Below are positions 43,224 through 50,648 of a stretch of DNA of 64,000 nucleotides, piece after piece (the first letter of the stretch is position 1; each line of letters starts with the position of its first letter). The DNA comes from Eledone cirrhosa. Its lineage: Eukaryota. The stretch is taken from assembly GCA_964016885.1 (NCBI GenBank), contig OZ024742.1, forward strand, positions 316,882,001 to 316,946,000, given 5' to 3'. The notes below the pieces were generated by a model. It worked only from the letters and a program-made list of their open reading frames with translations, did no database searches and had not been told where the DNA came from. The translations under genes and the position numbers were made by a program.

Positions 43224-45007
43224 TAATATATTTAGAAACACACAGATACATGCGGACACACACATATATACATGAATGCATCCGCACCCAACTGTGAGTT
43301 AAGGGTGCCAACTTCACCGATGTTGCTCAATGAATGACTGGGACAGACCAATTCAGTTTGAACCAGACTGAACCAGTATCAGAGTTAAAAATACATTATG
43401 AAGAGAGAAGAAACATTTAGATATAATTAGTAATAAAATGTATCATACCTAAACTGTTCCTAAATTCCTCGACTACGTAGTTTCGTGGCATAAACAAAAA
43501 CAATATATCAAAGATATAGAGTCCTTGCGAGGTCTGCCGACTTATCAAGAGGATACCTCATTTTACTAGTCTGAAGAACGCGTCTACACGACGTGAGAAA
43601 GAATCCCAAAAGGCGGAGGGGGAGATAGTCACGCGATATAACGGTCGAGAAACAGAGCTATGCCTCTTATAACCACGAAGAAAATACCACGGAGGCGGAG
43701 GGGGGTATTCATATCGAGGCCGTAGAAGAGGTAGTGAAGAAGGCGAGAAGTGTGAGTAATGGAAGCTTTCCAGTTGTCCCCACACTTCAAAGATTGCTCG
43801 ACCAGAGGGAGTTATTAATATATTTAGAAACACACAGATACATGCGGACACACACATATATACATGAATGCATCCGCACCCAACTGTGAGTTAAGGGTGC
43901 CAACTTCACCGATGTTGCTCAATGAATGACTGGGACAGACCAATTCAGTTTGAACCAGACTGAACCAGTATCAGAGTTAAAAATACATTATGAAGAGAGA
44001 AGAAACATTTAGATATAATTAGTAATAAAATGTATCATACCTAAACTGTTCCTAAATTCCTCGACTACGTAGTTTCGTGGCATAAACAAAAACAATATAT
44101 CAAAGATATAGAGTCCTTGCGAGGTCTGCCGACTTATCAAGAGGATACCTCATTTTACTAGTCTCAAGAACGCGTCTACACGACGTGAGAAAGAATCCCA
44201 AAAGGCGGAGGGGGAGATAGTCACGCGATATAACGGTCGAGAAACAGAGCTAAGCCTCTTATAACCACGAAGAAAATACCACGGAGGCGGAGGGGGTATT
44301 CATATTGTTTTTGTTTATGCCACGAAACTACGTAGTCGAGGAATTTAGGAACAGTTTAGGTATGATACATTTTATTACTAATTATATCTAAATGTTTCTT
44401 CTCTCTTCATAATGTATTTTTAACTCTGATACTGGTTCAGTCTGGTTCAAACTGAATTGGTCTGTCCCAGTCATTCATTGAGCAACATCGGTGAAGTTGG
44501 CACCCTTAACTCACAGTTGGGTGCGGATGCATTCATGTATATATGTGTGTGTCCGCATGTATCTGTGTGTTTCTAAATATATTAATAACTCCCTCTGGTC
44601 GAGCAATCTTTGAAGTGTGGGGACAACTGGAAAGCTTCCATTACTCACACTTCTCGCCTTCTTCACTACCTCTTCTACGGCCTCGATATGAATACCCCCT
44701 CCGCCTCGGTGGTATTTTCTTCGTGGTTATAAGAGACTTAGCTCTGTTTCTCGACCGTTATATCGCGTGACTATCTCCCCCTCCGCCTTTTGGGATTCTT
44801 TCTCACGTCGTGTAGACGCGTTCTTGTGACTAGTAAAATGAGGTATCCTCTTGATAAGTCGGCATACCTCGCAAGGACTCTATATCTTTGATATATTGTT
44901 TTTGTTTATGCCACGAAACTACGTAGTCGAGGAATTTAGGAACAGTTTAGGTATGATACATTTTATTACTAATTATATCTAAATGTTTCTTCTCTCTTCA
45001 TAATGTA
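43224..45007. mobile_element. Family U: 592 bp tandem units followed by inverted units, between (AT)n tracts
   Basis: The sequence at 43231 repeats at 43823 and the inversion is at ~44303. HHRs at 43466-43553 (-), 44058-44145 (-) and 44846-44933 (+). Confidence 0.9.
44846..44933 (+). ncRNA. Type I hammerhead with U3-A8 core and extended helix II (family U)
   Basis: TCCTC-TTGATAA-GTCGGCATA...TATGCCAC-GAAA-CTACGTAG-TC-GAGGA. Confidence 0.8.
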
Positions 45008-45298
45008 TATATATATATATATATATATATATATATATATTGTTATACTTTGGGAGGGTCATGTTTCCAATATATATATATTTGAGATCAGAGCAAACAT
45101 CACGGACCCTCTATCTCAAAATTATTTTTGAAAAGCATTAGAAATGCGCAACCGGTAAAACTTAAAACCAAAACTGAATACTAACCAATACAATTACTAA
45201 TTCTCACTTATTCCTAATTAACTATTTTTCACTGTGAATAATTAGTCAGCATTTTCTATTCCGTTTACCAATATATATATATATATTTATGTATGTAG

Positions 45299-45485
45299 AG
45301 GCATGTGGCCTAGTGGTGTTGGACTTACAATCATAACGTCGTGGCTTCGATTCCTGGGTTGCGTGTTGTGTTCTTGAGCAAAACACTTAATTTCAGGTTG
45401 CTCCAGTATACTCAGCTGAAAATGACGCCATGAAACCAGGATAAGTACCGGTCAAATGAGCCTTCTGGCTAAAGACAGGCTTTAG
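45299..45485 (+). mobile_element. tRNA-derived CORE-type SINE
   Basis: TGGCCTAGTGG A box, TTCGATTCC B box, GTGTTCTTGAGCAAAACACTT core-like motif. Confidence 0.7.
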
Positions 45486-45531
45486 ACTTTAGATATATAT
45501 ATATCATAGTAATAATAATAATAATAATTGT

Positions 45532-45692
45532 TCACAAGGCCAGCAATTACTGGTACTTTATTTTATCGACCCCGTAAGGATGAAAGGCAAAGTTAACCTC
45601 GGCGGGATTTGAACTCAGATCGTAAAGGGACGTAAATTTTTGCGTCAAGCATGGCGTCCGACCCTCTACTGATACTGCCAATCCACCGCCCT
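45532..45692 (-). mobile_element. tRNA-derived SINE (same family as 16761 and 28356) in (AAT)n
   Basis: GATGAAAGGCAAAGTTAACCTCGGCGGGATTTGAACTCAG. Confidence 0.85.
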
Positions 45693-45767
45693 TAATAATA
45701 ATAATAATAATAATAATAATAATAATAATAATAATAATAATAATAATAATAATAATAATAGTAATGT

Positions 45768-47475: not shown

Positions 47476-47975
47476 AGAAACACACAGATACATGCGGACA
47501 CATACATATACATGGATATATCCACATATATCCTTGATTTAGTGGTACCAACCTCAACCGATGTTGCTCTATGAATAACTGTGACAAACCAATTCGAATG
47601 GATTATATTGATTCAGTATCAGAGCTATATAATACATTATGAAGAGAGAAGAAACATTAAATATAATTAGTAATAAGATATATCATACTTAAACTGCTTA
47701 CTTAGTCCCCGACTGCGTAGTTTCGTGGAATATTATGCAAAAACACTACATCACAGAGATATAGAATTTTTGTGCGGTCTGCCGACTTATCAAGAGGATA
47801 ACTCATTAAGGGTTTCAAAACACGTCCGTAAGATGCGAGATAGAATCCCGAAAGGCGGAGGGGGATCAGTCACGTGATACAGAGGTCAAGAAACAGAGCT
47901 AAGGGAGTTATAAACAATATATACACAAATTCTATATCTCTGTGATGTAGTGTTTTTGCATAATATGCCACGAAA
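47476..47975 (-). mobile_element. Diverged family U copy with U3-A8 HHR at 47706-47798
   Basis: Collinear with 43235-43670 but diverged. TTGATAA and GAAACTACGCAGTC are retained. Short inverted end. Confidence 0.75.
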
Positions 47976-48150
47976 TTAACCGATATAAAAGACACAGAAG
48001 CGAAAAGCGAAAACCAACCAAACAGTGAGTGAGTTCTGTTATTAATTCTGGCAATATTACACAAATATGACCCTCCCCAAGTATAACAATATTTGTTTCG
48101 ACACACGATTTCACATCAAAAACCTCGCAAAACTATATATATATATATAT

Positions 48151-49978
48151 ATTAGAAAGTGAGGTTTTTTTTACAAATTGAAAAATAACCGAGGTGTCCT
48201 ACACGAGTGAAAGTATAAAGAAAAAAAGATGAAATCGAAAATGCAACTGGAGTCTTATTTTTTTTAAAAATATATATATTTATTTGGTTCCTTTACCGGT
48301 TTCGCAGTTCTTCTGCTTTTCAAAAGTAGAGTTGAGATGGAGGGTCTGTGGTTTTTCTCACATATATATATATATAGGAAACCATATGGTCCATCTGGTT
48401 CCTTACCACAACTCCTTTGTTATAATATATTAACAATTAATTGATTAATTTAATTAGACAATTCTATTGATTCATTAATTGTTTATGTTTGTTCGATAAC
48501 TTCTAGTTGAATGCTTAATTCGGTTTGTGTAAAGGAGTTTTATTCCTTTGTTCCAAATTTTGAATTTGACCGCCAAAACCGGGGGTTAGGTAACCTTTGG
48601 GAAAACCATGTGCCTTATACCAGTGTTTACTGCTATTATTCACACCGGGGTGGACGAGAACGAAAGACTTGTTGACGAAGTAAATTCCCCTGTTCTATCT
48701 TCCAAAAACCATTAACTTGCAGACCCCTGGAAGTGGATTTTGTCGATTTCGGATTTACAGAAACCTAGCGGAGATATTATATATTATATGTGATGTATAT
48801 TATATAGTATATATTATGTGTTGTGTATGGTATCGACGCGACGGTCCAGCTTTGACATATTTTATCCTGAGTTCAGTCTTTTTCGTCGCTTTGGTCACTG
48901 CAGCCCGCCTATCGGCCGCTGTCTTCAATTTGCAAAGCTGTCTAAACGTAATGTTATAACTCTAGGGTTATATACACTATTGAGTGGTTAGCTGCACACC
49001 CAGACTGCATTCGTTAGCTTGGCTGCAACCAGAGCTTCGATAATGCTGTACTAAATTTTATTTATATATATATATATTAGAAATTGAGGTTTTTTTTACA
49101 AAATGAAAAATAACCGAGGTGTCCTACACTAGTGAAAGTATAAAGAAAAGAAGATGAAATCCAAAATGCAACTGGAGTCTTATTTGTTTTTAAAATATAT
49201 ATATTTATTTGGTTCCTTTACCGGTTTCGCAGTTCTTCTGCTTTTCAAAAGTAGAGTTGAGATGGAGGGTCTGTGGTTTTTCTCACATCTGGCTAATCTC
49301 TGAATGTTACTTGTTGTATATGGAAAAAGTGGCTCGAAATGCCAGGTTTATCGAGAAGTAATTTGATTGGTTGGTCAATAATTATAATAAATTTCGCGCC
49401 AGTTCGCGTGAATATGAACAATTCACTGAACCAGAACAATTCACCCATCCCATTTCTCTTAACCATTATCTTTTACTTATCATAAAATTCTCTAAAAAGG
49501 CTACAGAATGGATTTCCAAATAAGGGCGCGAAAATTTAATGGAAACTTGTTCACGTGACAGCCATAATTTCATTTATAACCAATCAAATTACGCTTATTT
49601 AAAAAAAAAGCCTTCGTGAGCCCCTTTTTTCAAGTAAAAAGAAATTCAAACACTCATATATGAAAAAACAACCTTTGACAACCCCCCCCCCTCTTATTTG
49701 AAGAACTATTGTAACGCGAACTGGCGCGAAATTTATTATAATTATTGACCAACCAATCAAATTACTTCTCGAAAAACCTGGCATTTCGAGACACTTTTTC
49801 CATAAAAAACAAGTAACATTCAGAGACCAACCAGATGTGAGAAAAACCACAGACCTTCCATCTCAACTTTACTTTTGAAAAGCAGAAGAACTGTGAAACC
49901 GGTAAAGGAACCAAATAAATACATATATTTAAAAGAAAAATAAGACCCCAGTTGCATTTTCGATTTCATCTTTTTTTC
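48151..49978. mobile_element. Family V: direct copies (~48151-48362, ~49076-49410) and an inverted copy (~49715-49978), each with a U3-A8 HHR
   Basis: TACTT-TTGAAAA-GCAG(AAGAA)CTGC-GAAA-CCGG-TA-AAGGA at 48288-48329 (-), 49213-49254 (-) and 49869-49910 (+). Confidence 0.8.
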
Positions 49979-50502
49979 TATATATATATATATATATATA
50001 TATATATATGAAAGACGTAAAATAAGAAAATTTTAAAAATTAAAAATTAACTTACTTACTAAAATGTTCACTCCAACTAATTAGTTTCTGTATCTTATAT
50101 ATTTGCTAGCATTAGTGTAAATCTGTGCGCATATGTTGGTAGATGTACTAATTCTCTCTCTTTCTCTCTATATATATATTTATTTATATATATATATAAA
50201 TTTTCGCTCTACATGACTGAAAACATGGCATATTAGCAGACTGGCTGATCATTAGTGTCTTCAGTTCTGATTACATGCCAAGATTACAACACAAGACCAA
50301 GAATGAGGGGCTGACATGGCTTTAAAAATGAGGCATGTTTGCATAATTGCAAACGAATCGAATGTTATTATTAATATTCGAAAAAGTCAGATTAAATTTA
50401 TTATATATATATATATATATATATATATATATATATATATATATATATATATATATATAAGTTAAAACAATGAAATAAAGATTGAAGTTAGTAGGAATAT
50501 AC

Positions 50503-50648
50503 TTCACTGCTTTACGATCGTTTCTATGTGATGATAATACATCGTACGCATATTTCGTTATCGATCTATGTAAGGTTAGTTACAAAATATCAAATAAGGA
50601 ATATATTTAACTACGTGTATATCGTCAACCATTGTCAAAAGCAATGAA
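50503..50648 (-). ncRNA. Long-helix-II hammerhead with U3-A8 core, related to family L
   Basis: TTCATTGCTT-TTGACAA-(~105 nt hairpin)-GAAA-CGATCG-TA-AAGCAGTGAA, with a 10 bp helix I. Confidence 0.75.

Follow-up and report, generated by a model that had tools for sequence, protein, structure and literature searches.

The DNA analysed here (the window) is a stretch of 64,000 nucleotides from Eledone cirrhosa (NCBI GenBank assembly GCA_964016885.1, contig OZ024742.1, positions 316,882,001 to 316,946,000 of the forward strand), numbered in the following from its first letter. It is AT-rich animal DNA with (TA)n throughout, in which type I hammerhead motifs are found together with the remains of Penelope-like elements (PLEs). 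Nine of these motifs, forming three families (U, V and X; table 1), have a U3-A8 pair replacing C3-G8. They share one layout, i.e. the core, helix II, GAAA (GCAA in one diverged V copy), a palindromic helix III, the NUH cleavage site and a strand that pairs with the bases preceding the core. A sequence-only reading of this stretch had placed TTGATAA (U), TTGAAAA (V) and TTGACAA (X) at the core position of hammerheads. This assignment holds, all eight motifs that it named being recovered, far above the level of shuffled sequences, by a descriptor in which positions 3 and 8 are free; its list, however, lacked the fourth V copy at 45128(+), and its account, correct as to hammerhead identity, overlooked the Penelope-like host and the dimer requirement.

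Table 1. Motifs of families U, V, X and L, and the PLE open reading frame (ORF) remnant that adjoins one of them.
Feature	Positions	Strand	Remarks
U copy 1	43466..43553	-	core TTGATAA, U3 at 43548, C17 at 43471
U copy 2	44058..44145	-	core TTGATAA, U3 at 44140; direct tandem, 592 nt from copy 1
U, 5'-truncated inverted copy	44302..44342	+	3' half (GAAA, palindrome and cleavage site) without the 3-9 core
U copy 3, inverted	44846..44933	+	core TTGATAA at 44851
U copy 4, diverged (~80% identical)	47706..47798	-	core TTGATAA at 47793
V copy 1	48291..48326	-	core TTGAAAA at 48323, G10.1-C11.1, A17 at 48294
V copy 2	49216..49251	-	core TTGAAAA at 49248
V copy 3, inverted relative to copy 2	49872..49907	+	core TTGAAAA at 49875; G10.1-U11.1
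V copy 4, diverged	45125..45160	+	core TTGAAAA at 45128; GCAA for GAAA
Element X	50502..50649	-	core TTGACAA at 50638, GUA site, A17 at 50513; U3-A8 homologue of L
Family L copy	7719..7856	+	core CTGAAGA (C3-G8)
Family L copy	27129..27266	-	in 3' end of 5'-truncated PLE
Family L copy	30298..30435	+	inverted arm of same insertion; arms 27075-28355 / 29217-30489
Broken 3' end of PLE ORF	28555..29095	-	Cys-rich linker, GIY-YIG-like endonuclease (VYKC...YIG); one stop, one frameshift

Census of the motifs

The main descriptor fixed U4, G5, A6 and A9, GAAA, a palindromic helix III, UH and helix I, leaving positions 3 and 8 free; diverged copies were added by family-wise blast, and the repeats of the window were mapped by self-blast, the output of a generic repeat finder being dominated by microsatellites. 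Altogether, 29 copies with a complete 3-9 box were found, 20 with C3-G8, in seven families (A, B, C, D, E, F and L), and nine with U3-A8 (four of U, four of V and the single X), a count that omits four truncated copies without the full box (30657, 32853, 44302 and 50250). Single-change cores (C3-A8 or U3-G8) occur in 0 of the 29. When the script blind to positions 3 and 8 was run over the whole window, it gave 23 matches (15 C-G, 7 U-A and 1 G-U), while 200 local dinucleotide shuffles gave on average 0.495 matches per window, 0.045 of them U-A, and three or more U-A matches in none of the 200. A second, short-loop descriptor returned 5 C-G and 3 U-A matches versus a total of 0.62 in shuffles.

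The core boxes (N3 U4 G5 A6 N7 R8 A9; G12 A13 A14 A15.1; U16.1 H17; Watson-Crick 3-8) are complete in eight of the nine U3-A8 copies, the exception being the V copy at 45128, which has C13, and three helices surround the core, with the ends in helix I, in U, V and X alike. An NUH cleavage site is present in 29/29 copies, but it is part of the search pattern itself. Three candidates were set aside: the lone G-U match, in which GTGACTA at 44826 was taken as the core through a scoring tie and displaced the U copy at 44851, a solution found in one copy only; a supposed second hammerhead at CTGAAGA near 43572(+), where the remaining U copies differ; and an AT-rich TTGATAA candidate at 21046(-), which appeared only in the loosest scan and was left uncounted.

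Rfam gave no hammerhead match at the gathering score in the whole window, and no hammerhead family is among its 25 matches at E up to 10 between 43200 and 50800. Since the C3-G8 copies are missed as well, this silence reflects the scope of the models and not the variant. That the U3-A8 motifs escape CUGANGA searches holds by definition, but a U3-A8 descriptor was already run in 2014, as reported by Cervera & de la Peña (PMC4209133), and in practice an annotation based on CUGANGA only would miss about a third of the motifs here and one based on Rfam all of them.

The density of motifs (29 in 64 kb) is very high, the C3-G8 copies spanning 7187-35740, and nucleotide U4 is altered in two of these (7715 and 11276). 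Truncation or inversion junctions lie within a motif, or about 10 nt from it, at 7715-7728, 30657, 32853, 44302, 47923-47978 and 50250, which may suggest that reverse transcription stalled or snapped back at the structure.

Families U, V and X

In family U, helix I has 5 bp, positions 10.1 and 11.1 are G-C, helix III is a 10-nt palindrome and the cleavage site is GUC, while helix II has a bulge after 2 bp followed by a long stem-loop, the whole arm measuring 57-62 nt. Copy 4 has breaks in helices I, II and III that are found in no other copy. Reads from 4 of 12 runs were compared with the assembly over 47465-49050 (a segment without X or L) at 80% likeness. Run X10, which consists of raw reads of restriction-site-associated DNA sequencing (RAD-seq) from a second animal under the same species label, with 22-25 read starts at the sites in question, has the pairing letters at these breaks in 184/203 reads for helix I, 205/205 for the palindrome and 199/206 for helix II. 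The helix III palindrome is perfect in eight of the nine U3-A8 copies, the sole mismatch, that of U copy 4, being restored in all the reads. In the 40 of 430 difference rows seen, no difference falls in the cores of U copy 4 or V copy 1, and rare C3 or G8 variants are possible. Contigs similar to U and V are also found in read runs labelled as organisms B and D; for one D contig that spans the U core, none of the 13 differences listed, out of 14, lies within the core, so that this contig has not reverted to C3-G8. No RNA run is among those listed as containing these sequences, which counts neither for nor against transcription.

Family V has a helix I of 3 bp, a helix II of 4 bp, a 6-nt palindrome and a GUA site, and its copies 2 and 3 lie within inverted arms (49139-49409 and 49714-49984). 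The diverged copy 4 (69% identity over 96 columns) has lost A13 and is probably dead; relative to copy 1, two of its base pairs have changed in a compensatory way, C-G to U-A in helix I and G-C to U-A in helix II.

Element X has a helix I of 11 bp, a helix II arm of 107 nt and an 8-nt palindrome identical to that of L, a C3-G8 family with which it is homologous (blastn 74%, E 4.8e-30, in agreement with the alignment). Between L and X, helix I has two double compensatory differences (U-A to C-G and A-U to G-C) and two further one-sided wobble exchanges, pairing being kept throughout; helix II of both begins with 2 pairs or a mismatch, followed by an internal loop. The C-G to U-A covariation claimed for this pair by the sequence-only reading stands as regards homology and the C3-to-U3 exchange, which is still aligned pairwise, whereas the match of G8 to A8 depends on the ungapped structural register, in which 12 of 21 positions are identical, because sequence-only aligners open a gap in or beside the core. 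The helices that had been called intact are present, but the term was too strong for a V helix I of 3 bp, a bulged U helix II and the irregular helix II of X and L.

The 3-8 and 10.1-11.1 pairs

At the level of families, the cores divide into seven C-G, three U-A and no mixed ones (10 families, Fisher p 0.008, the families not being independent and possibly sharing ancestry; p 0.012 with C and F merged). Together with the compensatory changes in helices I and II, this distribution bears out the compensatory reading of U3-A8 and supports the view that U, V and X are hammerhead motifs whose 3-8 pair is under structural constraint.

The adjacent pair shows a further difference. Positions 10.1 and 11.1 are Watson-Crick in all three U-A families (G-C in U and V, U-A in X) versus one of the seven C-G families (C), the remaining ones having U.U (A, B and D), A.A (E), G.U (F) or C.A (L), with a post hoc Fisher value of 0.033. 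The G10.1-C11.1 combination itself occurs in U and in three of the four V copies and in none of the seven C3-G8 families, and from L to X the change of C3-G8 to U3-A8 goes together with that of C10.1.A11.1 to U10.1-A11.1 and with a stronger helix I. It might be proposed that, in the PLE hammerheads of this lineage, the weaker U3-A8 pair needs a Watson-Crick 10.1-11.1 pair in order to be viable, a proposal that we consider tentative and, on balance, unlikely, as the association may be due to chance or shared ancestry, and V copy 3 has G.U there. If true, two core-adjacent pairs would show natural epistasis, and would do so repeatedly, in retrotransposon families independent of each other, and the L/X pair, with its helix II arm of about 100 nt, would offer a test of whether selection on PLE hammerheads preserves cleavage itself.

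Link to Penelope-like elements

The broken PLE ORF end (table 1) is followed, about 1.3 kb downstream and on the same strand, by the L hammerhead at 27257(-), inside a 1.3-kb inverted repeat; this is the position downstream of a reverse transcriptase (RT)/GIY-YIG ORF; for U and V no such position is seen within this window. The ORF end matches a second relic at 39738-40256 (E 2.9e-26), whose look-alikes in the Atlas have scores of 0.96-0.97, 10 of the 30 matches being GIY-YIG clusters, with the GIY-YIG family on 23% of the members of the Atlas cluster shown. Pfam found no family in three of the four proteins from these fragments, and a further Pfam look-up gave nothing meaningful, so that the identification rests on the Atlas look-alikes, the mutual similarity of the fragments and motifs that we take to be those of PLE endonucleases.

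The region 27075-30489 is a 5'-truncated PLE insertion, the endonuclease end lying between 1.3-kb inverted arms that each end in an L hammerhead, and a repeat resembling a short interspersed nuclear element (SINE) is inserted after the ORF end (~28356-28543). The second relic extends over 39738-41011(-) as a degenerate RT-thumb/linker/GIY-YIG sequence; CTGAAGC near 39044(-), downstream of it, may be a decayed hammerhead.

(TA)n is found at most 255 nt downstream of the cleavage site in 17 of the 18 copies examined and, taking one representative per family, in 10/10 versus 0.35 of random sites. In the arrangement published for PLEs, copies stand in partial tandem or are inverted and 5'-truncated, and the targets are microsatellites; here, U has a 592-nt tandem and inverted copies, V copies 2 and 3 are inverted with respect to each other, and the targets are (TA)n. 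Thus, X is connected with PLEs by its homology to L, which adjoins a PLE endonuclease end, and U and V by their architecture.

Dimer folding and proposed mechanism

Within a monomer, helix III can form only 1-3 bp plus a loop. For U copy 2, the free dimer of minimum free energy coincides exactly with the two-site hammerhead fold (-58.9 kcal/mol versus -22.9 for the monomer), and helices I and III are also paired in the in silico dimers of X and L. As PLE pseudo-LTR (long terminal repeat) hammerheads, the motifs of the window most likely cleave as dimers. The reading that we prefer, with a probability of about 0.78, places the type I hammerhead motifs of U, V and X within 3' pseudo-LTRs of PLEs, with predicted dimer cleavage and a U3-A8 pair kept by selection.

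We infer the PLE link of U and V, cleavage as dimers, a role in RNA processing and a path through a wobble pair, which would combine as follows. In the master elements of the three families, the tertiary pair C3-G8 would have been replaced by U3-A8, probably through two transitions via a U-G wobble, with selection on the master element maintaining the 3-8 pair; a U3-G8 intermediate is plausible as the published PLE representative Saccoglossus 1 has U3-G8 (PMC4209133). Two motifs, in one transcript or two, would pair through the helix III palindrome, which is too short to fold well alone, to give two active sites, and a cut following GUC or GUA would trim the (tandem) PLE RNA before target-primed reverse transcription by the RT/GIY-YIG protein, the trimming of PLE transcripts by hammerheads having already been proposed in print. 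In the window, U, V and X survive as short 5'-truncated, tandem and inverted copies that end in (TA)n.

Several observations weigh against this interpretation. No ORF remnant was found upstream of U, V or X, the reason why U and V are tied to PLEs by architecture only. That none of the 29 young copies is a single mutant carries little weight when taken alone (P 0.05-0.56 under neutral decay). As to folding, the 3-bp helix I of V is absent from its predicted minimum-energy dimer, the free fold of U copy 4 differs from the hammerhead fold, and, with monomer z-scores of -2.96 for X and -1.85 for L, U copy 2 reaches only -1.23 and V copy 1, at -0.47, is no better folded than its shuffles. The extra nucleotide between A9 and G10.1, part of the published PLE hammerhead consensus at over 80%, is missing in U and V and ambiguous in X; it is not obligatory, however, Marsupenaeus and Saccoglossus 2 being among the published rows that also lack it (PMC4209133). 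Finally, the minimal PLE hammerhead tested by Cervera & de la Peña (PMC4209133) is described as inactive as a monomer and low as a dimer, and in the type III construct of Roberts 2023 (PMC9901934) only G3-C8 rescued the 3-8 position, the other single and double changes there being low. These published data suggest that the activity of U3-A8 motifs would be low here.

Alternative explanations

It is rather unlikely that the hammerheads of the U3-A8 families cleave weakly or not at all, their fold being kept for RT or template recognition, for dimerization, or by hitchhiking on a transposition process that does not require cleavage. What argues against it is that both partners changed together in three of three families, at a pair that matters in the catalytic conformation of the hammerhead, and that NUH is kept in every copy, with the reservation made above on the search pattern. 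Conversely, the low in vitro activity of PLE hammerheads, for which the authors left other functions possible (PMC4209133), the spread of Naiad PLEs, described as lacking canonical hammerheads, and the failure of U3-A8 to rescue in one high-throughput data set (PMC9901934) would all fit such a view, whereas natural U3-A8 covariants, first reported by Perreault 2011 (PMC3088659), are stated there to be active in vitro.

That U and V are non-LTR retrozymes, i.e. tandem units of 170-400 nt forming circular RNAs (circRNAs), instead of remnants of PLE pseudo-LTRs, seems quite improbable to us: the 592-nt direct tandem repeat of U and the lack of an adjoining ORF for U or V in the window could be read in this way, and retrozymes are known in molluscs (PMC7229834), but they are described as canonical type I motifs in head-to-tail arrays of ~170-400 nt, whereas the U unit measures 592 nt, V and X have no tandem, and the copies here show 5' truncation, inversion and a (TA)n end, as do those of the PLE-tied L. 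More improbable still, and largely refuted, is the view that U3 and A8 are the product of decay, C>T and G>A having occurred independently in an AT-rich genome, or that the motifs are chance matches to a loose pattern. Such substitutions are indeed among the commonest differences in the compared reads, TTGANAA is itself AT-rich, and sequence alone leaves the gaps of the L/X core alignment ambiguous; against this, the same script gave seven U-A matches versus 0.045 per shuffled window, no core is mixed, and the core is unchanged across copies that are 20-30% apart. Matches due to chance also look different: a metagenome scan with the V pattern gave none, and one with the L/X pattern gave 37, all of them chance matches, a helix I of at least 2 bp being present in 0/37.

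Other repeats of the window

The GC-richer end of the window contains broken ORFs of non-LTR retrotransposons at 56274-59088 and 61814-63676 (-), with a Pfam RVT_1 match at 56760-57794 (E 2e-9) and a gag-like ORF at 59882-61144; a further fragment lies at 46053-46538. The segment 637-1119(-), in which Pfam found no match, resembles a restriction-like endonuclease of a site-specific non-LTR element, and the repeats at 12609-13337 and 33678-34371 are grouped with it. A SINE-like family of ~150-200 nt ending in (AAT)n has at least seven copies (16763-18767, 28337-28547, 45533-45714 and 63905-64000). Very deep read pile-ups with loose ends at 47980-48113 and 48385-48424 correspond to high-copy repeats that abut (TA)n and are unrelated to U and V.

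Comparison with known hammerheads

The U3-A8 exchange is real, but U, V and X are a new example and not a discovery, because both the variant and its high copy number in PLEs were published in 2014 (PMC4209133). For the PLE hammerheads of Schistosoma mansoni, that paper reports ~1,300 U3-A8 versus ~2,000 canonical matches, which gives no support to calling the variant uncommon, as the sequence-only reading had it, and the claim of an unusual frequency in this lineage is not supported either: the U3-A8 share here is 9/29 copies (31%) and 3/10 families versus ~39% in S. mansoni (binomial p 0.75 on families), i.e. no higher than in the published case, and one window gives no lineage rate. Among the 56 rows of Fig. 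S3 of the same paper, two are U3-A8 (UUGAUAA and UUGAAAA) and one is U3-G8, but this set undercounts U3-A8 since it was gathered mostly with a CUGANGA descriptor. As for cephalopods, the giant squid paper (PMC6962438) gives 235 Rfam hammerhead 1 matches, and no paper devoted to cephalopod or octopus hammerheads was found in the literature searched, which excludes most subscription journals; related work includes Craig 2021 (PMC8557442), Weinberg 2019 (PMC6765202) and PMC7151607.

The non-LTR retrozymes of Cervera & de la Peña 2020 (PMC7229834) are likewise short repeats of invertebrate genomes with hammerheads of type I, but these are canonical and belong to head-to-tail units of 170-400 nt that lead to circRNAs, with neither inverted truncated copies nor an ORF link in the available text of that paper. 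The covariants of Perreault 2011 (PMC3088659) have the same exchange, and also U10.1-U11.1, found here in families A, B and D, but are presented as rare cases across the domains of life and not as high-copy retrotransposon families. Closer are the PLE hammerheads of Drosophila, Aedes, shrimp, rotifer and Hydra (PMC4209133), which also have a palindromic helix III, a short helix I and a pseudo-LTR location, but whose published rows are all C3-G8 with a short loop 2.

When both partners of a pair that forms in the catalytic conformation change in a compensatory way, this points indirectly to selection for cleavage. The window adds three U3-A8 families and, in L and X, a natural C-G/U-A pair convenient for assay, in what is probably a new host group. 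The nearest relatives are the hammerheads of the Cercyon PLEs of S. mansoni (PMC4209133, Fig. S3, rows S. mansoni 3 and 4), which are likewise of type I, dimer-type and located in pseudo-LTRs, share UUGAUAA with U and UUGAAAA with V letter for letter, and belong to elements whose copies are dispersed or in opposite-strand pairs, as here. They differ in that the published minimum for the helix III palindrome is 4 nt, whereas it measures 6-10 nt in the window, where U and V are without the extra base after A9 and the helix II arms reach 57-62 nt in U and 107 nt in X. By our reading of the same figure, the S. japonicum row and S. mansoni 4, near-identical outside the core, form a published C-G/U-A pair, so that a switch inside one family is in print as well.

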